Below, piece by piece: positions 5,404-21,549 of a DNA stretch of 64,000 nt (its first letter is position 1; the number at the start of each line of letters is the position of its first letter). The stretch is from Escherichia coli (GTDB taxonomy: Bacteria; Pseudomonadota; Gammaproteobacteria; Enterobacterales; Enterobacteriaceae), in the NCBI RefSeq assembly GCF_044324875.1, contig NZ_CP172185.1, one strand, 5' to 3'. Position numbers and translations under genes: made by a program. The notes beneath the pieces were generated by a model. It was not told the origin of the DNA. It made no database searches and saw only the letters and a program-made list of their open reading frames with translations.

Positions 5404-6696
5404 ATGGCACACCGCTACCTGACACGACAGGATCACAGGACCTTATCTCTGGCTGCGCTCGGAGGCGCACTTGAATTCTATGACTTCATCATTTTTGTTT
5501 TTTTCGCCGCCGTCATTGCTGAGCTCTTTTTCCCGCCGGATATACCGGAATGGCTCCGTCAGCTCCAGGCATTTGGTATATTTGCTGCCGGGTACCTGGC
5601 ACGACCTCTCGGCGGAATAATTCTGGCCCATTTTGGCGATATACTTGGGCGAAAGAAAATGTTCACCCTGAGTATTTTGCTTATGGCAGTACCGACACTT
5701 GTTATCGGTATTTTGCCAACCTACAGCTCTGTGGGTACCCTGGCTCCTGTGCTGCTTCTTCTGATGCGTCTGCTTCAGGGCGCAGCGATTGGCGGTGAAG
5801 TGCCCGGTGCCTGGGTTTTTGTTGCTGAGCATGTACCGGAGCGCCGAACCGGTATTGCATGCGGAACACTGACAGCAGGTTTAACCGCCGGGATCCTGCT
5901 TGGTTCAGTGGTTGCCACACTTGTCAATTCAGTATTGTCTCAGGATATTGTTTACGATTACGGCTGGCGATTCCCCTTCCTTCTTGGTGGTGTTTTTGGC
6001 CTGGCAGCAATGTACCTGCGCCGCTGGCTGGAGGAAACTCCGGTATTTCTGGAAATGAAAGCCAGAAAAAAACTGGCTCAGGAATTACCGGTAAAAGCTG
6101 TCGTTTTAAGACATAAAAAAGCTGTTGTGATTTCCATGCTGTTGACATGGCTGATATCCGCAGGGATTATTGTGGTGATACTGATGGCACCGGTCTGGTT
6201 ACAGAAACAGTATGACTTTTCGCCGACAGTCACCTTACAGGCTAACAGCATTGCAACTATTATGCTGAGTCTGGGATGCCTGCTGGCCGGTATGGCCATT
6301 GATTCTTTTGGTGCCGGAAAAACCTTTATATCAGGCAGTATTCTGCTTGGATGTTCAGGATGGCTGTTCTATCACACTGTCGGTGAGTATCCTGAAATGT
6401 TGTTCTGGCTGTATGGGCTGGCGGGATTCAGTGTGGGCATTGTCGGGGCCGTCCCTTATGTTCTCGTGCGTATTTTCCCCGCAGAGGTCAGGTTTACCGG
6501 CATTTCATTCTCTTACAATGTCGCTTATGCAGTGGTGGGGGGACTGACTCCTGTTGTGGTCACGATGTTAACGGAAATCTCCCCGATGGCTCCAGCATGG
6601 TATGTTATGCTGTTATCACTTGTGGGATCAGGACTGGGAATATGGTTCTGCAGGGATCCCCGTCTTTTTATCTGTCACGCAGACAAAGACAAATAA
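5404..6696 (+). CDS. MFS transporter, probably metabolite:H+ symporter family
   Basis: 430-aa hydrophobic ORF with GGALEFYDFIIFVFFA, GDILGRKK, FSYNVAYAVVGGLTP. Confidence 0.7.
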   Translation: MAHRYLTRQDHRTLSLAALGGALEFYDFIIFVFFAAVIAELFFPPDIPEWLRQLQAFGIFAAGYLARPLGGIILAHFGDILGRKKMFTLSILLMAVPTLVIGILPTYSSVGTLAPVLLLLMRLLQGAAIGGEVPGAWVFVAEHVPERRTGIACGTLTAGLTAGILLGSVVATLVNSVLSQDIVYDYGWRFPFLLGGVFGLAAMYLRRWLEETPVFLEMKARKKLAQELPVKAVVLRHKKAVVISMLLTWLISAGIIVVILMAPVWLQKQYDFSPTVTLQANSIATIMLSLGCLLAGMAIDSFGAGKTFISGSILLGCSGWLFYHTVGEYPEMLFWLYGLAGFSVGIVGAVPYVLVRIFPAEVRFTGISFSYNVAYAVVGGLTPVVVTMLTEISPMAPAWYVMLLSLVGSGLGIWFCRDPRLFICHADKDK

Positions 6697-7005
6697 TGTT
6701 TCACCGTTATATAACGGTATCATTCAGTTTTTAAAAATGGCGACAGGTTAACCTGTCGCCATCCGGTCAGATGCTCACCAGACCGCGCCCCCCATCAGTC
6801 TCCATATCCTCCCCCTTGCCCTGCCGGATGATAGCGCCACGCGACATCACCAGGTAGTGGTCCGCCGTCATGTTCCGGTGAAATCGTCCTGACACGTTTC
6901 CGGGCTCGTTATCAGCGGTTTTTGCGAATGATCGCCGCCCTGCGATGGTTGATTTATTTTATTGCGCCCCGGCGTCTGCCTTGCCAGGTACCGGAGGCGG
7001 GCTCT

Positions 7006-7104
7006 GAAGTACTGAGTAGGGTGAGCGCGTCAGGCCACGAAGTACTGACACGGGAGTTTGTGGCAGGCAGTGAAGTCCTGACCAGGGTAAGGGAGGGGCT
7101 GACG
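7006..7104. repeat. Three tandem 33-bp units each beginning GAAGT(A/C)CTGA
   Basis: Units start at 7006, 7039 and 7072 (exact 33-bp period), conserved 10-bp head, variable body. Confidence 0.5.
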
Positions 7105-7319
7105 TGCATGCCCTGACTGTCAGCCAGGGCGCGTGGTGACTGACTTTCTCAATAACCCGCTGTCAGGCGCTCAACGCCCGACAGCAGGCCATGGCCCGGT
7201 GTGCAAAGACCTGACGGCAGGCCTTGTGTCACCCGGATAAGGTAAATCCCTCAAGAGGCAGCAACTCAGCCAGTCGGTCCTCAGGCCACTCCGGCAGGCG
7301 CGTCAGTACGTCCGTCAGC

Positions 7320-7488
7320 CAGGCATGTTGCAAAATCGCATCGTGTTCGATCGCCGATTCGCATCGTACTCGATCGCTGATTCGCATTGTCCGATCATTG
7401 ATTCGCATCCTGCAGTCACTCCTGGAATTAACTTTTCTGCATAGTCTCTACTGCTGAATTTTCTTCTCAGTAGAGGTCTTGATGGCTG
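7320..7488 (+). mobile_element. IS21-family left-end stub (multiple TTCGCAT...GATCG terminal repeats), truncated by the IS66-family element
   Basis: Repeat series and ...CCGATCATTGATTCGCATCCTGCAGTCACTCCTGGAATTAAC closely parallel the left end of the IS21-family element at 48620-48780. Confidence 0.45.
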
Positions 7489-7517
7489 TAAGCGTCAACG
7501 GAGCACCGTATTGACGC

Positions 7518-9131
7518 TTATTTATTGGTGAGTACTACGTTCCATGGCAGGAGTTCGTCAACTCGGTTGGAAGGCCATTCCGGCAGTACGCTCAGGATAT
7601 GGCGCAGATACGCTTCCGGATCGATACCGTTCAGACGGCAGGTGCCGATCAGCCCGTACAACAGTGCTCCACGCTCGCTGCCGTGATCGCTGCCAAAGAA
7701 CATAAAGTTTTTCTTTCCGAGACAGACTGCACGAAGCGCTCTTTCCGCAGCATTATTATCCGCCTCCGCCAGACCGTCATCACTGTAATAACAGAGGGCA
7801 TCCCACTGATTCAGTACATAGCTGAACGCTTCGCCCAGTCTGGATTTTTTCGACAGCGTACCATTCTTCTCCACCATCCATTCATGCAGCGACGTCAGTA
7901 ACACTTTGCTTCGCTGCTGCCTGACGGCAAGACGCTCTGACTCCGGTAATCCCCGTATTTCATCCTCGATGGCGTACAGTTCACTGATTCGCTTCAGGGC
8001 TTCTTCTGCCGTCGCACTTTTGCTGCTGATGTATACATCGTGGATTTTTCGCCGGGCATGGGCCCAGCACGCAACTTCTGTCAGTGCACCACCTTCACGT
8101 TCTGCACTGAACAACCTGTCGTAACCTGTGAACGCATCCGCCTGCAGGATACCCCGGAAGGGGCGGAGGTGTTGCTCCGGGTGTTTCCCCTGCCGGTTCG
8201 GCGAGTACGCGAACCAGACCGCTGGAGGAGATGACGAACCCACATTGCGATCATCCCGGACATACGTCCAGATACGCCCTGTTTTCGCCTTTTTCTGACC
8301 CGGTGCCAGTACCTTTACCGGTGTGTCATCAGTGTGAACCTTGCGGGTGTTCATTACATAACGGTACAGGGCATCATTCACCGGTGTCATTAACTGGCAG
8401 CACGCGTCAACCCAGTTGGAGAGTAAGGCCCGGCTCAGTTCGACACCCTGGCGGGCAAAGATTTCACTCTGACGATACAGTGGCAGGTGTTCGCAGTATT
8501 TTCCCGTTAACACGCGGGCAAGTAACCCCGGGCCCGCGATACCACGCTCTATCGGACGGGATGGTGCCGGTGCTTCAACGATACAGTCACATTTTGTACA
8601 GGCTTTTTTTACCCGTTCTGTGCGGATCACTTTCAGGGCGCTGCTCACCAGTTCCAGTTGTTCTGCACTGACTTCCCCCAGATAATCCAGCTCACCGCCA
8701 CACTCCGGGCAACAGCTTTCTTCAGGCTCCAGGCGGTTTATTTCGCGGGGCAGATGCTCCGGTAACGGACGACGATGGCGTGACTGTCGCAACTGGCGGG
8801 GAACCTGCCGGTCATCCTCTCGCCCACTGTAACGATCGCTGTCCTGTTCGCGTTGCTTCAGCAGGGCCTCAGCCTGTTCAACTTCACGACGCAGTTTTTC
8901 AGAACGGGTACCGAACAGCATCCGGCGCAGTTTTTCTATCTGAGCCCGCAGATGTTCTATTTCCCGTTCATCTTCTTCGATCTTTTCTTCGGCACGTGCC
9001 AGCGCAGAACGCAGGAAGGCCTCCGTCTCTTCAACCAGACTCAGTTGTTGGTCTTTCTGACGGAGGGCTTCAGCCTGCTCAGAGAGCAACCTTTCCAGCT
9101 CTGCGATGCGAATGAGGTATTTCTGACTCAT
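7518..9131 (-). CDS. IS66-family transposase TnpC
   Basis: 537-aa ORF with N-terminal coiled coil, CxxC..CxxC zinc motif (CCPECGGE...CTKCDC) and IS66 catalytic region. Confidence 0.85.
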   Translation of the reverse strand: MSQKYLIRIAELERLLSEQAEALRQKDQQLSLVEETEAFLRSALARAEEKIEEDEREIEHLRAQIEKLRRMLFGTRSEKLRREVEQAEALLKQREQDSDRYSGREDDRQVPRQLRQSRHRRPLPEHLPREINRLEPEESCCPECGGELDYLGEVSAEQLELVSSALKVIRTERVKKACTKCDCIVEAPAPSRPIERGIAGPGLLARVLTGKYCEHLPLYRQSEIFARQGVELSRALLSNWVDACCQLMTPVNDALYRYVMNTRKVHTDDTPVKVLAPGQKKAKTGRIWTYVRDDRNVGSSSPPAVWFAYSPNRQGKHPEQHLRPFRGILQADAFTGYDRLFSAEREGGALTEVACWAHARRKIHDVYISSKSATAEEALKRISELYAIEDEIRGLPESERLAVRQQRSKVLLTSLHEWMVEKNGTLSKKSRLGEAFSYVLNQWDALCYYSDDGLAEADNNAAERALRAVCLGKKNFMFFGSDHGSERGALLYGLIGTCRLNGIDPEAYLRHILSVLPEWPSNRVDELLPWNVVLTNK

Positions 9132-9161
9132 GACCGTTTTTATAATGCGGTCAGGCGTTTT

Positions 9162-9512
9162 TTACAACATTGTCAGTGAGTTAAGGCGGGATGTTTTTGG
9201 CTGACGCCAGTCCAGCTTATCGAGGAGCATTACCAGTTGCGAACGGGTAATGGATACCTTGCCGTCACGTACCGCAGGCCAGATAAACTGGCCTTCCTCC
9301 AGGCGTTTGGTGAACAGGCACAGACCATCAGCATCAGCCCAAAGAATTTTAACGGTGTCACCCCGTCGGCCACGGAAGATAAACAGGTGGCCGGAGAAGG
9401 GATTATCATTCAGCACATGTTGTACCTGTTCTCCCAGTCCGTTGAAGGATTTACGCATATCGGTAACGCCGGCAACGAGCCAGATACGGGTACCTGATGG
9501 GAGTGAAATCAT
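9162..9512 (-). CDS. IS66-family TnpB
   Basis: 116-aa ORF MISLPSGTRIWLVAGVTDMRKSFNGL... Confidence 0.85.
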   Translation of the reverse strand: MISLPSGTRIWLVAGVTDMRKSFNGLGEQVQHVLNDNPFSGHLFIFRGRRGDTVKILWADADGLCLFTKRLEEGQFIWPAVRDGKVSITRSQLVMLLDKLDWRQPKTSRLNSLTML

Positions 9513-9934
9513 CTTCCCCTCCCGCTCAGTTCGCGGATCAACACCGTGAGCAGCTCTGGCGATGGATTTTCCAGCGTCATGTTACCGTGATGGAACTCCA
9601 CCTTGCAGGAACTGGCACTGACTCTGGTCTGAGTGGAAGTGGATAAAGACGGCGCAATGGCCGCCACAGGTTCTTTCTGCTCATCCGGCGTTATTTCTAC
9701 AGGTAATAATTCAACGCCAGTGTCAGAAGAGGTCGTTACCGGAAGACGCCGCGAAACACGCCCTTCGTTCTGCCAGAGCCTGAGCCATTTGAAAATAACA
9801 TTATCATTGACGCCATTTTCACGTGCAATCTGTGCAACACAAGCTCCAGGTTGTGATGCCAGTTCAACCATACGAAGTTTGAATTCATTCGAATAGTTTT
9901 TACGAGGTTCTTTTCGCCAGTCCTGTAATTCCAT
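9509..9934 (-). CDS. IS66-family TnpA
   Basis: 141-aa ORF with helix-turn-helix region (NYSNEFKLRMVELASQPGACVAQIARENGV). Confidence 0.8.
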   Translation of the reverse strand: MELQDWRKEPRKNYSNEFKLRMVELASQPGACVAQIARENGVNDNVIFKWLRLWQNEGRVSRRLPVTTSSDTGVELLPVEITPDEQKEPVAAIAPSLSTSTQTRVSASSCKVEFHHGNMTLENPSPELLTVLIRELSGRGR

Positions 9935-10014
9935 ACTTAGATGTCCGTCTATATCAGATGGGCGTCTAAGTTACCAATTTTCGTCTGATGGCTACATACG
10001 GCGGTCAGTTTACG

Positions 10015-10290
10015 CTTACCATTGAGGCAATTGAAAAACCACTTTCTTCCCTGCCTTACTCACTTTCCCGTCACATCCTGGAACATCTGCGTAAACTCAC
10101 CAGTCACGAACCCGTGATTGGCATTATGGGGAAAAGCGGGGCCGGTAAATCCTCACTCTGTAATGCACTGTTTCAGGGGGAGGTCACCCCGGTCAGTGAT
10201 GTTCACGCCGGCACCCGGGAAGTGCGGCGCTTCCGTCTGAGTGGCCACGGTCACAGCATGATTATCACTGACCTGCCCGGGGTGGGCGAG
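10015..10290 (+). pseudogene. GTP-binding protein fragment (YeeP/YfjP/YkfA-like prophage GTPase), truncated at both ends by IS elements
   Basis: ORF 9988..10293 carries a P-loop (GKSGAGKSSLCNALF) and DLPGVGE; the ATG at 9988 lies inside the IS66 terminal repeat; 3' end cut by IS629 at 10291. Confidence 0.65.
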
Positions 10291-10332
10291 TGAACCGCCC
10301 CGGGTTTCCTGGAGAGTGTTTTATCTGTGAAC

Positions 10333-11223
10333 TCAGGCTGCCAGATCATCGTTTCCGATGGAAGCATAATAAGCTTTTTCTGCTTCTGCCGGTGGGATAT
10401 GGCCCAGCCTTTCCAGCAATCGTCGATTGTTATACCAGTCCACCCACGTGAGTGTGGCCAGCTCCACTTCTGTCCGGTTTTTCCAGCTCTTACGGTGTAT
10501 TACCTCCGCTTTGTAAAGGCCATTGATGCTCTCCGCCATCGCGTTGTCATACGAGTCACCAGTACTTCCTGTTGATGCCAGTAATCCGGCTTCCTTAAGC
10601 CGCTGTGTGTAGGCCAGCGATACATACTGAGAACCTTTATCACTGTGATGGACTGTGCCGGACGGTCGACGGGCCCATAACGCCTGCTCCAGAGCATCCA
10701 GCACGAATGTCGTTTCCATAGACGATGAGACCCGCCACCCCACGATGTATCCGGCAAACACATCAATGATGAACGCCACATAGACGACCCCCTGCCATGT
10801 GCTGACGTAAGTAAAATCAGCCACCCACAACTGGTCAGGACGTTCTGCCACAAACTGACGGTTTACGCGGTCGCCTGCGGCAACGGCTTTCCGGCTGACG
10901 GTAGTGCGGACCTTTTTACCCCGGAGAACACCGGCAAGTCCCATAACCGCCATGAGGCGCGCCACTGTACATCTGGCTACCCTGATTCCTTCCCGTAACA
11001 ACTGACGCCAGACTTTACGCACACCGTATACCTGATGATTCCCATCGTATACGCGCAGTATCTCTTTCTTCAGCCAGTCATCGCGCTGCGCACGGGCACT
11101 GCGTTTATCCGGATGATGTCGCTGTTGCTGACAGTGGTAATACGTTGACGGGGCAATATGTAGTTCACTGCATACCGGTCCGACCCCGTACAGCTTACGC
11201 AGCTTATCCAGCAGTGGCATCAC
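10333..11223 (-). CDS. IS629 transposase OrfB
   Basis: 296-aa ORF identical to copies 3 and 4. Confidence 0.85.
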
Positions 11224-11546
11224 TTTTTCCAGAGGCGGTCGAACTCCGCCTTCGCAAAATAAGCGGAAGCCTGGCGAAGGATATCGTTACTGCGGCGCAG
11301 TTCACGATTTTCACGTTCCAGCTCTTTCAGACGCTGACGTTCAGCGGTGGTGAGCCCGCCATCACCGCCTCCGGTATCCCGCTCATGCTGGCGTACCCAG
11401 ACACGCAGAGTCTCCGGTGTACAGCCAATCTTTGGGGCAATGGAACAAATTGCCGCCCACTGTGAGTCATATTCGCCCTGACTTTCCAGAACCATACGAA
11501 TCGCCCTCTGACGGACTTCGGGGGAAAAACGAGTATTTTTAGTCAT
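11220..11546 (-). CDS. IS629 transposase OrfA
   Basis: 108-aa ORF identical to other copies. Confidence 0.85.
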
Positions 11547-11600
11547 TCTGTTTACCTCTTTCTCAGGGAGTTTAGTCTCCAGGATTCCCGGGGCGGTTCA

Positions 11601-12608
11601 GTACTGCCGAATTAGCCCATTTGTGTTCTCATTTGTTCCCCGCTGCCAAGGACTCTGAGGATCGCAGAAGTAAACTTTAACGCCGGTGCTGACAGTAAAT
11701 TCTAGATGTCTGGCCAGTTCCATTCCTCTGTCCCATGTCAGTGATTTTCTGAGTTCTGACGGTAAACTCAGGAATTTGTCGGTAAGAGCCTGATTTACTG
11801 AGACAGAATCTTTGCCCCTGAGTCTAAGGATGATCGTATAACGTGATTTTCGGTCTACAAGTGTGGCTATATGAGAGTTTTTTGTACCTGAGACTAAATC
11901 GCCCTCCCAATGCCCCAGAGAGCGTCTGTTATCGATATTTCGGGAACGTTCGTGAATTGGTGTTCCGTTCACTATGTTAATCGTACCTCTTTCGCCTTTG
12001 CGGGTATGACGCCTGCCATGGCGAAGGCTATGCGACCGTCGCAGATGCTGTATATTCAGGTGGTGTAGCGCTTCACGGCTACGAAAGTACAGCGTTTTAT
12101 AAATTGTCTCAGGTGATATTCGCAGCGTTTTTTGACGTGGTTTTGTTCGCCTTAACCATCCTGATATTTGCTCTGGAGACCATTTCATCTCCAGCTTTTC
12201 CAGAACAAGCTTTCGCAATGGTAAATTTTGATCCAGTAAGCACGGTTTTGGCCTTTTCGCCATTCTGTTGGCTCGGTTATTAGCATCAACAGCTTTGTAA
12301 TAGCGTCTGCCCCGATTACGCTGAACTTCACGTGAGATCGTCGAAGGACTGCGATTCAGCGCAGTAGCTATCGCACGAATGCTCATTTTGGCTGACAAAC
12401 CAGCTCGTATCTCCTCGCGCTCAGACAGTGTCAGGTGAGCTACAGCCCGCTTACGCTCATGGGGTTTTATGCCGCCAGTATCCCTTAACATAGTGAAGAT
12501 CGTTCCGGGTTTTGAACCCAGGATATTCGCTATTTCACTGAAGCCTGTTCCGTTCTTCCATAGTTCAAAAACAGAGGCTTTTTCCTCTGCTGTAAATGTT
12601 CGTCTCAT
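11601..12608 (-). pseudogene. IS30 transposase, C-terminally truncated
   Basis: ORF 11598..12608 [20 protein letters not shown]...NENTNGLIRQY stops at the IS629 boundary; full IS30 transposase is longer. Confidence 0.8.
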
Positions 12609-12670
12609 TCAAAAAACCTCCGCAACCCCATGTTTTCACATAACTGTTGCGTTGACCAATTGAATCTACA
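11601..12670 (-). mobile_element. IS30, truncated (about 150 bp of its distal end replaced by IS629)
   Basis: Terminal repeat TGTAGATTCAATTGGTCAACGCAACAG... (reverse complement ending at 12670); transposase ORF loses its C-terminus at the IS629 junction. Confidence 0.8.
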
Positions 12671-13005
12671 GTAGCCTTTTTTAATATTTCATTTTCCATT
12701 TCAATACGTTGTAGCTTTTTCCTGAGCTCACGGATTTCAATTTGTTCCGGGGTAATGGGGGAGGCTTTTGGTGTTTTTCCCTGCCGCTCATCACGTAATT
12801 GTTTCACCCATCGCGTCATTGTGGAAAGGCCGACATCCATAGCGCTGGCTGCATCTGCCACGGTGTAATTCTGGTCAACGACCAGTTGAGCGGATTCGCG
12901 TTTAAACTCTGCGCTGAAATTTCTTTTTTTCATTATGGCACCTGTGTTGTTCTGAGGTGAGCATATCACCTCTGTTCAGGTGGCCAAATTCAGTAAACCA
13001 CTTCA
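12671..13005 (-). mobile_element. IS911 5' fragment (left terminal repeat plus orfA 5' part), interrupted by IS30
   Basis: Terminal repeat TGAAGTGGTTTACTGAATTTGGCCACC (reverse complement ending 13005); orf[24 protein letters not shown]... begins at 12933 and runs into IS30 sequence. Confidence 0.75.
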
Positions 13006-13164
13006 ATCACCCTGCGGGCATGCCGCAGGTCACTGCCGCTCAGGTTCTCCACCGTCACACCCGGTGGGATTGTTGGGTTTCTCATCGTGAGTTACCGGTT
13101 CAATATTCCAGACAGACTCGCGGTTCATTTAAGCATCCATGCCCGCCCTGAACTCCGGGCACAC
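13006..13164 (-). other. 159-bp fragment of a group II intron 5' end (domain I start), identical to 26800-26958
   Basis: Reverse complement begins GTGTGCCCGGAGTTCAGGGCGGGCATGG... directly after IS911 orfB codons ..GDVTY; ends abruptly at the IS911 left terminal repeat. Confidence 0.75.
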
Positions 13165-13380
13165 TATAGGTCACATCACCGCACCACACCTGATTTGGCT
13201 CGGTCACGGCGAACTGCCGTTCAAGGTAGTTAGGGATAGCAACATGTTCATGACCACCACGTTTATACCGGTGAGTCGGCTGCTGACAGCTGACCAGCCC
13301 CAGCTCCTTGGCAATTTGACGTCCTTTCAGGCCTGGTGACCCACCTAATAACTCTGAGACTGCCTTCAGCAAACCATCAC
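13165..13380 (-). pseudogene. IS911 orfB 5' fragment (up to the ..CGDVTY motif), lacking its own upstream IS911 sequence
   Basis: ORF 13100..13372 translation ..[53 protein letters not shown] then intron-derived residues; hsdR stop codon lies at 13387-13389. Confidence 0.6.
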
Positions 13381-13386
13381 TCCTTT

Positions 13387-16300
13387 CTACCTACCCACCA
13401 TTCGTTGCATACTTTGCGTCCACGAGGCTTTAAATGCTGAATCTCCTGCGAACAACTTGTAGAGCTCAAGTTCATCTTTACGGCGTTGCAGCATGATTTC
13501 CTTGAGCATTTTTTCGAAGGCCAAATCTCGATTATGGGGATCTGGGTTGTTTTTGTATTTCGATTCGAAGTCAGGGTGATTGCGGATACTTTCAGCGATG
13601 TTCACGAACTTAACCTTTTGCTCTTCAGGTGTGGCACTCCAGCCCTGGAACCATCGCTCATTAAATGTGCGAATGATTTCATCCAGCGGGTCAGTTTCTT
13701 TTTCACCGCCATGCACCCCACGTGGGTTCGGATTTTGAGGATCAAGCTCCGCTTCTTGGTCACTAAGTTTAATGCTGTGGTTAAGCTTCACACGTTGCAA
13801 ACCGTATGAACTCAGATCGACAGAATCGAGAAGCTCATCAATAGCATCAGCATCGGGATCTTCCACTTTCAATTTCGGTATTAAAAACTTCAGGAACCAA
13901 AACAGTTTTTCCCAGCTGACCATTTCATAAGGCATGATAGAAGCCATCTGCCCATAGATTTTAACGAACTGTTTGGCTTTAATCTTAAAGTCCACTTTAG
14001 CTTCAGCTTCAAGATCTAGTTCATGGTCAAACCGCGCTGCGGCAATATCAATGATTGGACTGAGTGTTTGGGCGTCTTCATTCTTGAAATAACGCGTCAC
14101 AAAGTCTTCAACTTCATACCACTCGTACACACCGACATCGTCCATTTCATCTTTCAACTCGTGCAGTACGTTTATATCTGTAGCTTGGGACAATGACGTT
14201 GCTGTATAGAAAGGATCGAATGCTGATTGAATATCTTCAACCGAGTTGAAAAAATCCAGGATAAACAAGTCTTCTGTTTTCTTCCCTAGCTTAGGTGCAC
14301 TGCGATTGAGCCTAGATAGCGCCTGAACACACAAGACACTGGCGAGCTTCTTATCTACATACATGGCGCAAAGCTTAGGCTGGTCAAACCCAGTCAGATA
14401 CTTGTTAGCAACCACTAAAAGTCGATACTCATCGGTATCAAACATATCTTTGGTATCTGACTCGGCAAAACCATTAATATCTGCTTCGGTATATTCAATA
14501 CCATCAACTTCTTTGGTTCCTGAGAAAGCAATGGCAACTTTAAACGGGTTTCCTTGCTCCTCAAGTATTCGCCTTATCGCTTTGTAGTATCGAATGGCCG
14601 CCTCAATATTTTGAGTGACCACCATTCCTTTACCTTTACCTTTGAGCTTTTTCGTATTCACGACATGCGGAACAAAATGCTCCAGCATAATCTCTGCCTT
14701 GATATCAATTGTTTGCTGGCTTCGTTCTACATAAGCTCTGAGTTTTTTCTGCGCCTTTTTGGTATCAAACTCAGGGTTATCAGCAATTGATTTCTCAATC
14801 TCATAATAACTTTTGTACGTCGTATAATTTGCCAGCACATCCAAGATGAAGCCTTCTTCAATGGCTTGTTTCATCGAATACAAGTGAAACGGCTTGTAAG
14901 AGCCATCTTCTTGGCGTTGACCAAATTTCTCCAAAGTGCTGTTTTTTGGTGTCGCTGTAAATGCCAGGTACGACGCATTCCCGCGCATCTTACGCGATCT
15001 CATCGCCTGAAGGATTTTATCCTGAGCATCTTCTGCCTCTTCGACTTCAGACTTGCCCATCGCTCGGTTCATATTGTCATGCGCCGAACCAGACTGTGAG
15101 CTGTGTGCTTCATCGATGATCACTGCAAAGCGCTTGTCACTAAGATCGGCGATACCATCAATAATGAACGGGAATTTCTGAATCGTCGTTATAATAATCT
15201 TTTTGCCATTCTCCAGCGCCTGCTTAAGCTCAGAAGACTTATTCGCTGGGGCAATAATGTTCTTTACTTCAGAAAACTCTTTAATGTTATCCCGCAGCTG
15301 CTTGTCCAATAGGCGTCTATCGGTGACCACAATCACAGAGTCAAACAACGGCTGCTCCAAGCTTTTTCCGCCTGCCACATCAGACGAAGCAGGATAGGTT
15401 TCAATTAGCTGATAAGCTGCCCAGGTAATCGAGTTAGACTTACCTGAACCGGCTGAGTGTTGAATTAAGTAAGTCTGACCGACACCGTGCTGGGCGGCAT
15501 GGTCTACTAATTTTCTCACCACATCCAATTGATGGTATCGAGGAAAGAACAGGGTTCGCTTTGGTAATGGATCTTTGCTTGACCCATCCAGACGCACAAA
15601 ATGCTGAATAATATTCGCCAAGCTGTCTTTAGTGAATACTTCTTGCCATAGGTATGCCGTTTTATGGCCAGATGGATTCGGCGGGTTGCCTTGTCCAAGA
15701 TTGTGACCTTTATTGAACGGCAAGAAGAATGTACTGCTACCTGATAACTTGGTGGTCATATACACTTCGTCGGTATCGACCGCCATATGCACTAGGCAGC
15801 GGCCAAAGGTCAGCAATGGCTGAGTTGCATCCCGATCATCTCGATACTGCTTTTGGCCGTGATAACGTGCTGTTTGCCCGGTCCATGCGTTCTTCAACTC
15901 CAGCGTTATCAAGGGTATTCCGTTGATAAACAATACCATGTCGATTTCTTGTAGGGGATTTACCATGGAATAGCGCACTTGGCGAGTACAACTAAACACG
16001 TTATCTGCAAAGTTTTGCTTTACCTTCTCACTACTACTTGCCAAAGGGGCTGGATAGAGCAAATTGAAATGAGCATCGTCTACGCTTAGCCCTTTCTTAA
16101 GTAAATGAAGAATGCCATGCTTCTTAATCAGTCGGTCAAATCGTTCGAGTAACTTACGTTGCCAATCTGAGGGGTTGTTCTTTTGCAGTTTGGCCAACTC
16201 TACTTCTTGTGTCTTTTGCAGAAATTGCCAGAAAAAACGTTCATCAATGGCATATTGCATATTAAAGTCACTAGCAGCACCAATGAAGTATCCAGCACCC

Positions 16301-16404
16301 AGTGACTGCTGACTCAGTCCCTCTTTAAGCTCTTCAGCACTGATCCCAGCCAGACATTTCTCAATGGCCGACTCTAATGCTTGTTCATTGGTTTGACTGA
16401 CCAT
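13387..16404 (-). CDS. hsdR: Type I restriction enzyme R subunit (HsdR): N-terminal PD-(D/E)xK nuclease plus SF2 helicase motors
   Basis: 1005-aa ORF; nuclease motif D..ELK ([17 protein letters not shown]), helicase motif [11 protein letters not shown], motif [10 protein letters not shown], motif III FTATP; last gene of an hsdM-hsdS-X-hsdR array. Confidence 0.85.
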
Positions 16405-16418
16405 AATTGTAAATTCCC

Positions 16419-17582
16419 TTAATCAAAATTCTTCTGTTTCATTGCCTCAGCCGCTTTTTGCAGCGGTCCTTTTAAGGCTTTTTCTAACTTTGTCATCTGC
16501 TCTAAGTGCCACGCAACCGCTTGGGGCCAAGTCTCTTTGTTAAACCCGTCAGCTTTGGTCGAAAACTGGATACGGCAAGATTTCTTCTCATCCAGCCTCA
16601 TCCACTCAAGTTCTGCACCAAAAGTATGCTCAATGTCTTGTTTGGACTGACTCAACAAATCAAAAAGGTATTTATTCTCTTCGGTAACCCCACGGCTGAT
16701 CCAAAGCTCTACTCGAAGCTCTTTTTGCAGAAATATCAGGTTATACGGACATCCACTTAGCCCTGAGCCTGCTGATAACCAATGATCTTTGCTTGGGCTA
16801 ATGTTGTTATAGAGTTGGCAAGAGCTTTTCTGAAACGCCTCTAAGGCACGCTCCCAGTACTCGCGACGCACGGTATGGCGGTTTTTTAGTACCACTTCGG
16901 TGGTTTTTTCTTCCGCTTCCTTGGCATTAATGCCGATCATCAACTCTTTCGCTTCTGGCGTTGGAATGATCTGGTCAATATTAATCAGTAGCTGTTCACC
17001 CAGTGAATAAGGCGTGATTTTGAAGCAGGCAATGCTAATGCCTTGACCCAATAACCACAGCGCGGTGCTGGTCACTTCTTTGCGAAAGTTTGCCGCAACT
17101 AACATAATGCGCTGGCTGTTACCCAGGTTGAGCTTTAACTCATCGAGATCGGGCGCATCCAAAAACTCACATATTCTAGCAGAGGCACTTGCAGGGGTAT
17201 TAAACAAGTCAACCTCTCCTGTTACAGGCTCATAGCGGTCTAAGTACTGCTGGTAAATTTCAACGATTTGCGCTTTGGTTAAACTTGCGCAGTAGGAGGC
17301 ATATTTAAGCGCCTGCCACACCACATCGCGGCCACTATCGTCCAGCTTGTTTTCAATAATGACCAAGTTGCCATCTTTATCCAGTGCCAGTAAATCTAAG
17401 CGTTCACGGGTGTCATCAAAGCCATCGAACTCTTTTTGAATAATCAGCAGCTCTTCACCCAGTGCGGAAGGCTCGTGTGCCAACCATTCCTGAAGATTTT
17501 TGCGCTCAGTAAAGCCCAACTCACTGAATCTCTTCGTCTTAACCGGACTAATCCTGTTGGTCTGATAATTTACCGTGAACAT
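16419..17582 (-). CDS. Uncharacterised protein with a PD-(D/E)xK-like nuclease motif, embedded between hsdS and hsdR
   Basis: 387-aa ORF; N-terminal LALDKDGNLVIIENK fits D-x(n)-E-x-K; start codon 10 nt after the reconstructed hsdS stop and 15 nt before hsdR; no family assigned with confidence. Confidence 0.6.
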   Translation of the reverse strand: MFTVNYQTNRISPVKTKRFSELGFTERKNLQEWLAHEPSALGEELLIIQKEFDGFDDTRERLDLLALDKDGNLVIIENKLDDSGRDVVWQALKYASYCASLTKAQIVEIYQQYLDRYEPVTGEVDLFNTPASASARICEFLDAPDLDELKLNLGNSQRIMLVAANFRKEVTSTALWLLGQGISIACFKITPYSLGEQLLINIDQIIPTPEAKELMIGINAKEAEEKTTEVVLKNRHTVRREYWERALEAFQKSSCQLYNNISPSKDHWLSAGSGLSGCPYNLIFLQKELRVELWISRGVTEENKYLFDLLSQSKQDIEHTFGAELEWMRLDEKKSCRIQFSTKADGFNKETWPQAVAWHLEQMTKLEKALKGPLQKAAEAMKQKNFD

Positions 17583-17646
17583 ATTCGCTTCCTATTGCTC
17601 AACCTGAACCGCCCCGGGTTTCCTGGAGAGTGTTTTATCTGTGAAC

Positions 17647-18537
17647 TCAGGCTGCCAGATCATCGTTTCCGATGGAAGCATAATAAGCTTTTTCTGCTTC
17701 TGCCGGTGGGATATGGCCCAGCCTTTCCAGCAATCGTCGATTGTTATACCAGTCCACCCACGTGAGTGTGGCCAGCTCCACTTCTGTCCGGTTTTTCCAG
17801 CTCTTACGGTGTATTACCTCCGCTTTGTAAAGGCCATTGATGCTCTCCGCCATCGCGTTGTCATACGAGTCACCAGTACTTCCTGTTGATGCCAGTAATC
17901 CGGCTTCCTTAAGCCGCTGTGTGTAGGCCAGCGATACATACTGAGAACCTTTATCACTGTGATGGACTGTGCCGGACGGTCGACGGGCCCATAACGCCTG
18001 CTCCAGAGCATCCAGCACGAATGTCGTTTCCATAGACGATGAGACCCGCCACCCCACGATGTATCCGGCAAACACATCAATGATGAACGCCACATAGACG
18101 ACCCCCTGCCATGTGCTGACGTAAGTAAAATCAGCCACCCACAACTGGTCAGGACGTTCTGCCACAAACTGACGGTTTACGCGGTCGCCTGCGGCAACGG
18201 CTTTCCGGCTGACGGTAGTGCGGACCTTTTTACCCCGGAGAACACCGGCAAGTCCCATAACCGCCATGAGGCGCGCCACTGTACATCTGGCTACCCTGAT
18301 TCCTTCCCGTAACAACTGACGCCAGACTTTACGCACACCGTATACCTGATGATTCCCATCGTATACGCGCAGTATCTCTTTCTTCAGCCAGTCATCGCGC
18401 TGCGCACGGGCACTGCGTTTATCCGGATGATGTCGCTGTTGCTGACAGTGGTAATACGTTGACGGGGCAATATGTAGTTCACTGCATACCGGTCCGACCC
18501 CGTACAGCTTACGCAGCTTATCCAGCAGTGGCATCAC
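17647..18537 (-). CDS. IS629 transposase OrfB
   Basis: 296-aa ORF identical to copies 2 and 4. Confidence 0.85.
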
Positions 18538-18860
18538 TTTTTCCAGAGGCGGTCGAACTCCGCCTTCGCAAAATAAGCGGAAGCCTGGCGAAGGATATCG
18601 TTACTGCGGCGCAGTTCACGATTTTCACGTTCCAGCTCTTTCAGACGCTGACGTTCAGCGGTGGTGAGCCCGCCATCACCGCCTCCGGTATCCCGCTCAT
18701 GCTGGCGTACCCAGACACGCAGAGTCTCCGGTGTACAGCCAATCTTTGGGGCAATGGAACAAATTGCCGCCCACTGTGAGTCATATTCGCCCTGACTTTC
18801 CAGAACCATACGAATCGCCCTCTGACGGACTTCGGGGGAAAAACGAGTATTTTTAGTCAT
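18534..18860 (-). CDS. IS629 transposase OrfA
   Basis: 108-aa ORF. Confidence 0.85.
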
Positions 18861-18914
18861 TCTGTTTACCTCTTTCTCAGGGAGTTTAGTCTCCAGGATT
18901 CCCGGGGCGGTTCA

Positions 18915-19526
18915 TTGGGAAGTTGTGCCTCTAAAAAGGTTGGCGGTCTTGAGCCCTTCTGTGAAAGTTTCAAATAGAAAGTCCAAAGAATTAGTTACTT
19001 TCTTAGCGATAGAAAAGGTTTCAACAGATGGATTTATTGATCAAGATACATTAATGCCTATATGTGATGTGAGCCAAGGTTTTACGGTTTTTAACCGGGG
19101 GGATGTGATTGTTGCAAAAATTACACCTTGCTTTGAAAATGGGAAATCTGCTTGGCTTAACAATCTTCAAACTGAGTTTGGTTACGGCTCAACCGAGTTT
19201 CACGTTTTAAGATGTGGTCAGAGAATTATAGGAAGTTTTCTCTACTTAATCGTTAGTTCGCCCCTTTTTCTTAATGCCGGTGAGGCTATGATGACTGGTT
19301 CAGCTGGTCAGAAGCGCGTGCCTAGTTCATTTATCCAAAACTTTCCTACCGCAATTCCCGGAGTTGCAGAGCAAGAAAAAATAGTATCAAAGGTAAAAGA
19401 GCTGTTTTCACAGATTGATGTTGTTGTGGCTTCTACGGTAAATCAAATCGAAAAGCTCAAAGAATACAAAACCACCCTGATCAACAGCGCCGTGACAGGA
19501 AAAATAAAAATCACCCCAGAAATGGT
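18915..19526 (+). pseudogene. hsdS: hsdS 3' half (second target-recognition domain and distal conserved region), inverted relative to the rest of the operon
   Basis: ORF 18925..19575 (GTG start artefact) ...QEKIVSKVKELFSQIDVVVASTVNQIEKLKEYKTTLINSAVTGKI... typical HsdS C-terminal repeat; reads on + while hsdM, hsdS 5' half and hsdR read on -. Confidence 0.75.
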
Positions 19527-19580
19527 TGAACCGCCCCGGGAATCCTGGAGACTAAACTCCCTGAGAAAGAGGTAAACAGA

Positions 19581-19907
19581 ATGACTAAAAATACTCGTTT
19601 TTCCCCCGAAGTCCGTCAGAGGGCGATTCGTATGGTTCTGGAAAGTCAGGGCGAATATGACTCACAGTGGGCGGCAATTTGTTCCATTGCCCCAAAGATT
19701 GGCTGTACACCGGAGACTCTGCGTGTCTGGGTACGCCAGCATGAGCGGGATACCGGAGGCGGTGATGGCGGGCTCACCACCGCTGAACGTCAGCGTCTGA
19801 AAGAGCTGGAACGTGAAAATCGTGAACTGCGCCGCAGTAACGATATCCTTCGCCAGGCTTCCGCTTATTTTGCGAAGGCGGAGTTCGACCGCCTCTGGAA
19901 AAAGTGA
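19581..19907 (+). CDS. IS629 transposase OrfA
   Basis: 108-aa ORF identical to other copies. Confidence 0.85.
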
Positions 19908-20794
19908 TGCCACTGCTGGATAAGCTGCGTAAGCTGTACGGGGTCGGACCGGTATGCAGTGAACTACATATTGCCCCGTCAACGTATTACCACTGTCAGC
20001 AACAGCGACATCATCCGGATAAACGCAGTGCCCGTGCGCAGCGCGATGACTGGCTGAAGAAAGAGATACTGCGCGTATACGATGGGAATCATCAGGTATA
20101 CGGTGTGCGTAAAGTCTGGCGTCAGTTGTTACGGGAAGGAATCAGGGTAGCCAGATGTACAGTGGCGCGCCTCATGGCGGTTATGGGACTTGCCGGTGTT
20201 CTCCGGGGTAAAAAGGTCCGCACTACCGTCAGCCGGAAAGCCGTTGCCGCAGGCGACCGCGTAAACCGTCAGTTTGTGGCAGAACGTCCTGACCAGTTGT
20301 GGGTGGCTGATTTTACTTACGTCAGCACATGGCAGGGGGTCGTCTATGTGGCGTTCATCATTGATGTGTTTGCCGGATACATCGTGGGGTGGCGGGTCTC
20401 ATCGTCTATGGAAACGACATTCGTGCTGGATGCTCTGGAGCAGGCGTTATGGGCCCGTCGACCGTCCGGCACAGTCCATCACAGTGATAAAGGTTCTCAG
20501 TATGTATCGCTGGCCTACACACAGCGGCTTAAGGAAGCCGGATTACTGGCATCAACAGGAAGTACTGGTGACTCGTATGACAACGCGATGGCGGAGAGCA
20601 TCAATGGCCTTTACAAAGCGGAGGTAATACACCGTAAGAGCTGGAAAAACCGGACAGAAGTGGAGCTGGCCACACTCACGTGGGTGGACTGGTATAACAA
20701 TCGACGATTGCTGGAAAGGCTGGGCCATATCCCACCGGCAGAAGCAGAAAAAGCTTATTATGCTTCCATCGGAAACGATGATCTGGCAGCCTGA
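19904..20794 (+). CDS. IS629 transposase OrfB
   Basis: 296-aa ORF identical to copies 2 and 3. Confidence 0.85.
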
Positions 20795-20836
20795 GTTCAC
20801 AGATAAAACACTCTCCAGGAAACCCGGGGCGGTTCA

Positions 20837-21543
20837 CAATGCTCTGGAATATCTCCAATCCAATCCACACCGGAGTCTTTCATTGGCACATTGGGATCAA
20901 GCCCTTGGGTCACCGCCTGTTGGATGATGATCTGCTTATGTTCTTTTAACAGATTAATTTGCTTTTCTTTGATCGAAATCGCTTCGTCGATTAGAGCGAT
21001 TTTCTTGTCTAGGAAGTTGGCGATACGGGTTTGTTGCTCATGGGGAGGAACAAACGTCTTAAAACTCAGAAATGAATCTTTAGGAATTGTATTTCTCAGG
21101 CCACGATAAAGCGGTTTAAGCATCTTTTTTGCATCAAGGTTCATATAAAAATAGTATAAAAACCTATTATCAAAATTGTCATTTAGTTCAAAAACGGTAT
21201 ATGCACCAGTAATCATCCCATTAAATGGCGACAACCCAACAGTTCTGGGTGTTTCTTCCACGTCGAACAAGCAGAAAATGAAATCTCCACACTGCACTTC
21301 TTGATAAGTATCGAACTCTGCTGGGAACTTACCCTCTGGGTTTTCCATATCACGCTTAATCACACCTCTGAGAGTAAGCGATAGCAAATCATATTCGCTT
21401 GAGCGTTTTCCAACCTGTTTTTTCTTCAAGCGAAAGATGTGCTTATTAGCTAATAAGCTCCAAGACGCAGGAATATCCCCTAGCCATTCAACACCTGAAT
21501 CCTTATAAACCTCATATTTCGGCATTTCAGAAATCTTCATCAT
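20837..21543 (-). pseudogene. hsdS: hsdS 5' half (first target-recognition domain and central conserved region), cut by IS629
   Basis: ORF 20797..21543; ...TRIANFLDKKIALIDEAISIKEKQINLLKEHKQIIIQQAVTQGLD...DIPEH then IS-derived read-through; start overlaps hsdM stop. Confidence 0.8.
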
Positions 21544-21549
21544 AACGAC

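Follow-up and report, generated by a model that had tools for sequence, protein, structure and literature searches.

The stack of insertion sequences beside hsdR is very probably a non-functional patchwork of known mobile elements, assembled by ordinary steps in a variable chromosomal island of E. coli. Read on the minus strand from 13309 to 10020 of the window (the whole analysed stretch of 64,000 nucleotides, from contig NZ_CP172185.1), it consists of an IS911 orfB piece, a group II intron fragment, the left part of an IS911-family element, an IS30, an IS629-group element and a GTPase fragment. The alignments of these components are far beyond chance, and the order of the elements, their junctions and a series of deletions in related genomes can be read from them directly. 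Each element named in the initial annotation was found at, or within a few bases of, the coordinates given there, and its nesting order, IS911 interrupted by IS30 and then IS629, was borne out by alignment. All components and processes of the locus are already known, and its significance beyond bookkeeping is small. It is nevertheless a clear case of insertion sequences, a site-specific group II intron and repeated IS copies eroding and reshuffling a genomic island, and the same reshuffling disables a restriction-modification system. IS names (IS629 versus IS1203/IS3411; IS911 versus ISEc52) were taken from the RefSeq annotation of related copies rather than from ISfinder.

The IS911::IS30 junction and its counterpart in K-12

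The segment previously described as the IS911 left repeat and orfA (12671-13005, minus strand) corresponds to nt 1-335 of an IS911-family element of the ISEc52 type, containing the left terminal repeat and most of orfA, and is cut by IS30. It is 100% identical to ISEc52 of strain 2018-02-2CC, 98.8% to K-12 IS911A and 91% to IS911 of JSWP006. The adjoining IS30 (11601-12670, minus strand) covers nt 1-1070/1071 at 99.8% identity to K-12 IS30A. It had been described as lacking its last 150 bp, and alignment puts the loss at 150-151 bp, one base at the joint being ambiguous, together with the right terminal repeat. A full IS30 comprises 1221 bp with 26-bp terminal repeats and a 383-aa transposase, whereas here the transposase ORF is shortened to 336 aa, has lost its C-terminus and runs into IS629. 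The truncated copy scores 237.7 bits with the NCBIfam IS30 transposase model NF033563, and its family is certain.

IS911 and IS30 together (13005-11600) are colinear with IS911A and IS30A of K-12 CP4-6, without gaps and at 99.57% identity over 1406 bp; the joint falls at the same nucleotide, and IS30 has the same orientation, as in K-12 IS911A/insN (insN/insI1). The likeness of this junction to CP4-6 that had been noted initially was upheld by alignment to K-12. This nucleotide of IS911 may be a hot spot for IS30, as GZEC065 has an IS30 there too, inserted the other way round.

The wider resemblance to CP4-6 that had been suggested ends at this joint and at the intron homing site. The order in K-12 is insN (IS911A) – insI1 (IS30A) – IS911A-1 – E.c.I4 fragment (eyeA/ykfC) – IS5A, with E.c.I4 inserted at the same orfB site (762/763) as in the window and its first 159 nt identical. 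In the window, however, the intron fragment is found, together with the orfB piece, upstream of the left end of IS911 rather than downstream of IS30. This orfB piece shares only 89% identity with its K-12 counterpart, the IS911 part after IS30 is missing, and IS30 is truncated by IS629. K-12 ykfA, moreover, lies upstream of the IS911 left end, whereas the GTPase of the window is on the IS30/IS629 side.

The region holds no complete IS911/ISEc52 copy, that is, one of 1250 bp with TGAAGTGG… ends and both orfA and orfB. Its IS911-family fragments are three (nt 1-335, 618-762 and 763-1250), which are 100%, 98.6% and 100% identical to ISEc52, respectively, and alignment showed nt 336-617 to be absent from the region. 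In relatives that retain the right end of IS30, IS30 is followed by a different IS3-family element and not by the rest of IS911.

The E.c.I4 intron, the two orfB pieces and the restriction-modification block

The 159-bp intron 5′ fragment reported above 13005 is the first 159 nt of the group II intron E.c.I4 (13006-13164, minus strand), cut off by the IS911-family left end. Positions 13164-13006 match both the full intron of the window (26958-26800) and the K-12 ykfC-region fragment at 159/159 nt. The full-length copy (24690-26958, minus strand, 2269 nt) begins with GTGTG, ends with …CTAC, scores 64.9 bits with Rfam Intron_gpII (RF00029) at 24690-24776 and is 98.9% identical to the K-12 fragment. 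It has the hallmarks of E.c.I4 (5′ GUGUG, catalytic domain V/VI and the fixed IS3-family orfB site), with a reverse-transcriptase ORF that is frameshifted; the copy differs from that of GF4 by a 1-base indel, and its longest ORF is 359 aa. The exons of this copy are chimeric: the 5′ exon is IS629 nt 1-795 (26959-27753, minus strand), and the 3′ exon is ISEc52 nt 763-1250 (24202-24689, minus strand), comprising the 3′ part of orfB and the right terminal repeat. The 3′ exon is 100% identical to ISEc52 of 2018-02-2CC and 95.1% to IS911 of JSWP006. E.c.I4 targets IS629 and IS911 orfB at a fixed site, and a fragment persists in MG1655 (Leclercq and Cordaux 2012, PMC3522654). The same study describes fragmentary and inactivated copies as common and intron/IS tandems as long recombination substrates. 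Nothing essential in the window departs from that description, the particulars here being one copy with chimeric exons and another cut at nt 159 by an IS.

The orfB piece above the intron fragment had been drawn as far as 13380. The piece is present, as an internal orfB segment (nt 618-762; 13165-13309, minus strand) that stops at the intron homing site, but its outer end is 13309. It matches the IS911 remnant on plasmid NZ_CP022167 at 100% and the IS911 copies of both JSWP006 and phage Sf6 at 99.3%. Positions 13310-13380 have no IS911 match and belong instead to the native downstream flank of hsdR (13310-13386, minus strand), in which a small ORF begins; a 16-bp microhomology marks the point where this ORF runs in frame into the IS911 piece. 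A reading of 13310-13380 as a diverged IS3-family orfB was rejected, since this small-ORF start continues differently in GZEC065.

The type I restriction-modification block (hsdR, a DUF4268 gene, hsdS and hsdM; 13387-24134, minus strand) has the end of hsdR at 13387, as initially placed, and its hsdS is interrupted by two IS629 copies and further disrupted by an inversion. Beyond it lies an IS3-family end remnant like ‘ISX’ of K-12 (24135-24201), with a 24-bp tandem duplication, to which ISEc52 is joined 43-46 bp in. We also considered whether the 24201/24202 joint could be an IS911 circle junction in which AGA would represent a 3-bp spacer or target duplication; this was rejected because AGA is native to the ISX-like remnant, 60 bp of which is uninterrupted on the plasmid.

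Plasmids of ~113 kb carry the same cassette with a contiguous, intron-free IS911 remnant (618-1249) beside hsdR. This remnant is 100% identical to the 618-762 piece of the window, whereas its 3′ half is only 94.7% identical to 24202-24689. The block of the window is split in its affinities: hsdR and the DUF4268 gene agree with the plasmid cassette at 99.8% identity, and on the hsdM side the same figure of 99.8% is reached with GZEC065-type chromosomes. In phage records, only the 145-bp IS911 piece was matched, and the restriction-modification cassette was not found. We propose that the block, which with its 145-bp IS911 piece is the cassette also found on these plasmids, would have recombined with a resident chromosomal copy.

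The two orfB pieces (618-762 and 763-1250) are colinear, meet at the homing site 762/763 and together restore the reading frame (...DVTY|IWTGKRW...). To this extent, the proposal that they reconstitute one intron-containing IS911 stands; its conclusion does not follow, because E.c.I4 always homes to this site, so that colinearity is forced by homing and expected for any two IS911-family copies carrying the intron. The sequences suggest that the pieces probably derive from different IS911-family copies. It is unlikely that they are halves of a single element with the restriction-modification block placed between them, for example through an IS911-plus-block unit that circularised and re-integrated through the intron. 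Such an origin would fit the fact that both pieces abut E.c.I4, and the plasmids, where the IS911 remnant (618-1249) and the block form one unit of which the window order is a circular permutation. However, the 3′ piece is entirely ISEc52-type and differs from the plasmid 3′ half, while the 5′ piece and hsdR are plasmid-type (99.8-100%), although a single informative SNP in nt 618-762 separates the IS911 and ISEc52 types, which makes this typing weak. Furthermore, ~35 chromosomes have the same joint between the 3′ piece and the ISX-like remnant, and two of those examined, GZEC065 and ET474, lack the 5′ piece.

The GTPase fragment

The left neighbour of the stack is ISEc23 (IS66 family, with tnpA, tnpB and tnpC; 7488-10019, minus strand), so named in the GF4 annotation and bounded by 24-nt terminal inverted repeats at 7488-7511 and 9996-10019. 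Matches to other IS66 copies stop at 10019, and homology to GTPase genes begins at 10019/10020. The GTPase fragment does abut the IS66-family end, as had been noted, and spans 10020-10290 (plus strand), or 271 bp instead of 276 bp. It encodes residues 7-96 of 290 of a YeeP/YkfA/YfjP-family GTPase and is cut by ISEc23 at the 5′ end and by IS629 at the 3′ end, just past the DLPGVGE motif. Although only a fragment, it retains the family motifs GKSGAGKS (P-loop GxxxxGKS) and DLPGVGE (DxxG), and the Era, Der and MnmE GTPase models gave only weak, sub-threshold matches. Its identity to GTPase genes in thousands of genomes is 95-98.5%.

That the gene is truncated, as first supposed, is evident from AR_0085, whose full-length 290-aa gene is 100% identical over the fragment and lies in the opposite orientation. 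It adjoins Ag43 there and in GZEC065, in keeping with island GTPases, which have ~290 aa and occur in CP4-like islands beside Ag43 and DUF932 genes. Its placement within a CP4-6 (ykfA) arrangement was not supported. The fragment shares only ~55% amino-acid identity with K-12 YkfA, which makes it a YeeP/YkfA-family paralog, and compared with K-12 it is inverted, cut at both ends and on the opposite side. In the least-rearranged relative, too, the GTPase gene lies beyond the IS30 right end and not upstream of the IS911 left end.

The IS629-group element and a series of deletions beside it

The IS629-group element (10291-11600, minus strand; 1310 bp) is the sole element of the stack still intact and is apparently active in the lineage. 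It has orfA (11546-11220, 108 aa), orfB (11223-10333, 296 aa), terminal inverted repeats TGAACCGCCCCGGG… and a frameshift pseudoknot at 11149-11265 (Rfam ALIL pseudoknot, 116 bits), as is typical of the group, whose members have ~1310 bp, overlapping orfA and orfB and a -1 frameshift signal. It had been called complete and without a direct repeat, and we likewise found no 3-4-bp target duplication, the flanks being GAG and GTA, as is expected after rearrangement. The element is identical to the copies at 17605-18914 and 19527-20836. Three IS629 copies of the window are absent from GF4, one with a clean 4-bp duplication and two with swapped 3-bp duplications; the copy at 646-1955 is flanked by a GTAC duplication. 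RefSeq labels window-type copies only as ‘IS3 family’, and the copies annotated IS1203/IS629 in O157:H7 and on poultry E. coli plasmids are ~95% identical to them.

Comparison with related complete genomes revealed graded retention of sequence beside the IS629 left end: most in AR_0085, less in GF4 and LR-31, less again in the window, and least in MS 119-7. AR_0085 and BEN5202 keep ~0.9 kb of the other IS3-family element and a full GTPase gene. GF4 and LR-31 have a complete IS30 followed by 37 bp of that element. The window is 187 bp shorter than GF4 and LR-31 and reaches IS30 nt 1071, the rest of the locus being 99.97-100% identical. MS 119-7 lacks the equivalent of window 11601-12475 on one side of IS629 and of 5458-10290 on the other. 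The claim that the IS30 end was lost in connection with IS629 therefore gains support, since GF4 and LR-31 hold the missing 187 bp in a near-identical locus. The 37 bp between IS30 and IS629 in GF4 represent the beginning of another IS3-family orfB, into which IS30 is inserted in ~360 genomes; their assignment to IS911 nt 336-372 or to more of the GTPase gene was rejected, as was the identification of the host element with the IS600 copy of LR-58-1. Taken in order, AR_0085, GF4/LR-31, the window and MS 119-7 might be used as a natural record of how IS629-associated deletion proceeds in steps.

The deletion ends at the IS30 site AAAGTACTG, which IS629/IS1203 has hit independently elsewhere. In O157:H7 F7349, an IS1203 lies in IS30 with the duplication GTA and a left-end joint identical to that of the window; on poultry E. 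coli plasmids, which also have IS911 nt 1-335 upstream of IS30, an IS629/IS1203 is inserted 1 bp away with the duplication AGT. Both occupy the same IS30 site as in the window (nt 1069-1072). They are, however, simple insertions with 3-bp duplications that keep the distal 150 bp of IS30, whereas in the window the distal IS30 is gone and the other IS629 end abuts the GTPase fragment. As the endpoint is a known IS629/IS1203 target, the 187-bp deletion probably arose by one of two routes, either in one step, by attack of the IS629 left end on this site within the same molecule, or in two, by insertion of a second IS629 there followed by recombination between the copies.

IS629 has been associated with genomic deletions in O157 (PMC9943667), and IS629 insertions, deletions and small structural polymorphisms in E. 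coli O157 and others are attributed to Ooka 2009 and Kusumoto 2011, as cited in PMC9943667. The present locus is similar in that an intact, multi-copy, active IS629 stands at the breakpoint of deletions of varied length in close strains. It differs in that the IS is retained after each deletion, whereas events mediated by the IS-excision enhancer protein remove it.

Import of the IS629/IS30 joint by homologous recombination or gene conversion from an existing IS30::IS629, for instance an insertion like those on poultry E. coli plasmids or in O157 prophages, appears improbable compared with local deletion. An identical joint (…GGTTCA|GTACTGCC…) does exist in F7349, with near-identical ones in many plasmids, and two adjacent substitutions separate the local IS629 from its GF4 orthologue, as might be expected of an import. 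On the other hand, the known IS30::IS1203 donors carry the ~95% variant, the window copy is 100% identical to two others in the window, its IS30 part is 100% identical to GF4, and a donor with a window-type IS629 in IS30 was not seen. These substitutions lie at IS629 nt 491-492, which read GG in the local copy and the two newest copies and TT in GF4, MS 119-7 and LR-31; GG need not mark an incoming copy, since it could have originated in place and spread from there. An assembly artefact, with repeated IS copies collapsed or mis-joined, is very improbable: repeats of 1.3-2.3 kb are frequent in the region, and the arrangement as a whole recurs in none of the complete RefSeq E. coli genomes, but all junctions other than the window-specific IS629 events recur in GF4, LR-31, AR_0085, BEN5202 and MS 119-7, the new IS629 copies show proper 3-4-bp target duplications, and the IS629/IS30 joint falls at a documented insertion site.

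Proposed order of events

We infer the following order and mode of deletion, with the direction of change between strain states taken from parsimony rather than from a strain phylogeny. First, E.c.I4 would have homed into the fixed site of IS3-family orfB genes, one copy entering the IS911 remnant beside hsdR, and another being the copy now placed between IS629 nt 795 and ISEc52 nt 763. Second, an ISEc52/IS911-family element, carrying IS30 at the K-12 CP4-6 nucleotide, may have inserted at nt 159 of the first intron copy. Third, an exchange between IS30 copies would have placed the different IS3-family element to the right of IS30, a state kept in AR_0085 and BEN5202. Fourth, an inversion with its breakpoint at the IS629-group element presumably reversed the 5′ part of the neighbouring GTPase gene, and successive deletions driven by IS629 would then have run outward from the left end of that element; the one seen in the window would have taken away IS30 nt 1072-1221 and the final 37 bp of the other IS3-family element.

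Two linked ideas are offered tentatively: that the restriction-modification cassette moves between ~113-kb plasmids and the island by homologous recombination, with the IS911 remnant and E.c.I4 as portable homology, and that IS30 nt 1069-1072 is a preferred target of IS629-group elements. If the latter preference is true, the ‘adjacent deletions’ of IS629 end at sites chosen by the transposase and not at random positions.

For annotation, two ORFs of the region are chimeric artefacts rather than genes: the ‘GTPase’ ORF from 9988, whose false start is an ATG within the ISEc23 terminal repeat, and the 90-aa ORF at 13100-13372.

Composition of the insertion-sequence stack

The nested stack beside a GTPase stub described in the initial annotation was confirmed, with all of its parts located by alignment to K-12 IS30A, an IS911 reconstructed from JSWP006, ISEc52 of strain 2018-02-2CC and the IS629 copies found in the window itself. 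On the minus strand it comprises IS911 orfB nt 618-762 (13309-13165), group II intron nt 1-159 (13164-13006), ISEc52-type IS911-family nt 1-335 (13005-12671), IS30 nt 1-1071 (12670-11600) and a complete 1310-bp IS629-group element (11600-10291), followed by a GTPase gene fragment coding on the plus strand (10290-10020) and by ISEc23 on the minus strand (10019-7488). The orfB piece and the GTPase fragment were both present as annotated, but the former ends at 13309 rather than 13380 and the latter measures 271 bp rather than 276 bp; an ATG at 9988 falls within the ISEc23 terminal repeat. A 90-aa ORF (13100-13372, minus strand) is a chimera of a small-gene start downstream of hsdR, 48 IS911 orfB codons and intron read-through. 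In the stack copy of IS629 (10291-11600), orfA and orfB are intact and the ALIL frameshift pseudoknot is strongly matched; the flanks of the element, GAG and GTA, form no target duplication. All components of the stack are known (IS629 group, IS30, IS911/ISEc52, E.c.I4, ISEc23 and a CP4-like island GTPase) and the processes inferred for it are all textbook (nested insertion, intron homing, repeat recombination, and IS-adjacent deletion and inversion); the stack is real, was read correctly in outline, and is ordinary.

Comparison with K-12 CP4-6

The initial annotation had likened this arrangement to the CP4-6 region of K-12. Window 11600-13005 aligned without gaps to K-12 270206-271611 (IS911A then IS30A; 99.57%), so the IS911::IS30 joint is the K-12 insN/insI1 joint. 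Beyond this joint and the E.c.I4 intron the likeness ends, as the identity and position of the GTPase and the sequence following IS30 differ. The window GTPase fragment is only ~55% identical to K-12 YkfA; it matches residues 7-96 of a 290-aa gene in the AR_0085 genome at 100% identity. The full AR_0085 gene adjoins Ag43 and lies past the IS30 right end, in the orientation opposite to that of the window stub. In relatives retaining the IS30 right end, IS30 is followed not by IS911 nt 336 onward but by orfB from another member of the IS3 family.

In the GZEC065 genome (L015 7360-7740, compared with window 12640-13005), IS30 occupies the same IS911-family orfA nucleotide in the opposite orientation, and the abutting IS911-family variant is only ~90% identical to that of the window. 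The comparison suggests an IS30 hot spot at this orfA site rather than one ancestral event; the joint shared with K-12 could thus stem from such a hot spot as well as from common descent.

The E.c.I4 intron and the two IS911 orfB pieces

The group II intron of the stack is E.c.I4, which homes to a fixed site in the transposase genes of IS629, IS911, ISEc16 and ISEc31 and is present in MG1655 as one fragment (Leclercq and Cordaux, PMC3522654); the window intron and the K-12 ykfC-region fragment share 98.9% identity. A full-length E.c.I4 lies at 24690-26958 between chimeric exons; the upstream exon is IS629 nt 1-795 and the downstream one ISEc52 nt 763-1250. The intron measures 2269 nt against 2270 in the GF4 genome, and this 1-base deletion breaks the reverse-transcriptase/maturase ORF (longest ORF 359 aa vs 502 aa in GF4).

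The two orfB pieces had been proposed to be halves of one IS911. The pieces, nt 618-762 and nt 763-1249/1250, prove precisely colinear, with the reading frame restored across the intron site, and so pass the check named in the initial annotation; because E.c.I4 always homes to this site, this is weak evidence for a single element. The nt 763-1250 and nt 1-335 pieces are each 100% identical to one ISEc52 reference. Non-mobilizable plasmids of ~113 kb, NZ_CP022167 for example, match the 618-762 piece, the 77-bp flank, hsdR and the DUF4268 gene at 99.8-100% identity; in these plasmids the IS911 remnant runs unbroken from nt 618 to 1249 without the intron and its 3′ half shows only 94.7% identity to window 24202-24689. 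The joint of the ISEc52 right end with an ISX-like remnant upstream of hsdM is common to ~35 chromosomes, and that of intron nt 159 with the IS911 left end was found in only 5. In GZEC065 and another genome, ET474, the 618-762 piece is absent, though the ISEc52 3′ piece is present; there the hsdR flank extends for another 46 bp as part of a small ORF, which in GZEC065 reads on as …KELGLDKSQVNSFLHKHQDTF before being cut by an IS911 end. These comparisons suggest separate histories for the two pieces, with moderate confidence because the typing of the 145-bp piece depends on one informative SNP. Testing of a circle-junction model led to its rejection.

Deletions at IS629 and its target in IS30

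The window is 99.97-100% identical to a GF4 chromosomal island adjoining lldP, and close relatives occur in the genomes LR-31, MS 119-7, AR_0085 and BEN5202. Beside the IS629 left end, five almost identical loci can be arranged as a nested series, in which the AR_0085 state would be basal and those of the window and MS 119-7 derived. AR_0085, which has no IS629 at this locus, and BEN5202 hold ~0.9 kb of another IS3-family element, an hsdM fragment and the full GTPase gene. GF4 and LR-31 have a complete IS30 with IS629 37 bp away, the other IS629 end lying against the inverted GTPase fragment; the stack IS629 copy of LR-31 additionally carries the intron, acquired by homing. The window lacks a further 187 bp, namely those 37 bp and IS30 nt 1072-1221, and MS 119-7 has lost IS30 down to ~nt 195 and, from the opposite side of IS629, 4.8 kb. 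In strain 135 (L010 9350-12935), window 10815-24687 is absent and one intron-containing IS629 lies between the GTPase stub and an IS66 tnpC fragment; the simplest explanation of the loss is that two intron/IS629 repeats in an LR-31-like ancestor recombined. Deletions linked to IS629 are a well-documented phenomenon (PMC9943667 and works cited there; preprint 10.1101/2023.06.07.543989). Excision promoted by the IS-excision enhancer protein eliminates the IS, whereas in the window IS629 stayed.

The window deletion ends at IS30 nt 1069-1072 (AAAGTACTG), which IS629/IS1203 has struck independently elsewhere (compared at window 11596-11610; L006 3760-3775 and 5075-5090; L007 3760-3775 and 5075-5092). 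O157:H7 F7349 carries a simple IS1203 insertion in IS30 with the duplication GTA and a left-end joint identical to that of the window, and plasmids of poultry E. coli isolates carry an insertion in IS30 1 bp from the window endpoint, with the duplication AGT. Since IS1203/IS629 hit the same IS30 site in these sequences, the window endpoint is, on this comparison, not arbitrary, and the elements may have a target preference for nt 1069-1072. The shared target suggests two routes to the deletion: the IS629 left end would have attacked the preferred IS30 site intramolecularly, or a second IS629 copy would have landed there, followed by recombination with the one already in place. Gene conversion or the two-step route is mildly favoured by GG at IS629 nt 491-492, a variant shared by the stack copy and the two newest window copies, where the GF4, MS 119-7 and LR-31 orthologues have TT. 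Despite the identical F7349 joint, known IS30::IS1203 donors are unlikely sources of the window joint, since their IS629 is only ~95% identical to that of the window. A recurrent IS629 target in IS30 that doubles as a deletion endpoint is of mild interest.

The IS629 at 646-1955, a new insertion inside lldD (L-lactate dehydrogenase), has a clean 4-bp target duplication, GTAC, which may point to the same target preference. GF4 lacks this copy, which shows four differences from the three remaining full copies in the window.

The restriction-modification block

The type I restriction-modification operon (window 13387-24134; L012 3516-11763), in which a DUF4268 gene separates hsdS from hsdR, was found both on the ~113-kb non-mobilizable plasmids and in the chromosomal island; about 59 genomes have its hsdR. 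On its hsdR side the window block is 99.8% identical to the plasmid type and 98.6% to the GZEC065 type; on its hsdM side it is 99.8% identical to the GZEC065 type and 98.5% to the plasmid type. Judged by these identities, the block is a recombinant of plasmid and chromosomal lineages, and the evidence of cassette exchange between plasmids and this island is of mild interest. An hsdS segment of ~615 bp, inverted relative to GF4, lies between two identical inverted IS629 copies (17605-18914, minus; 19527-20836, plus; together 17605-20836), whose 3-bp duplications (ACC and CAA) are interchanged. This arrangement fits two IS629 insertions followed by inversion, or intramolecular transposition. Because the specificity subunit gene hsdS is disrupted, the system is probably inactive in the window.

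Just upstream of hsdM, the ISX-like remnant (24135-24201), derived from the end of another IS3-family element and similar to 'ISX' of K-12, contains a 24-bp tandem duplication (TGAATCGCCACAGGTTTAA[T/C]AGAC); its plasmid version holds 60 bp of remnant with a single copy of the 24-bp unit.
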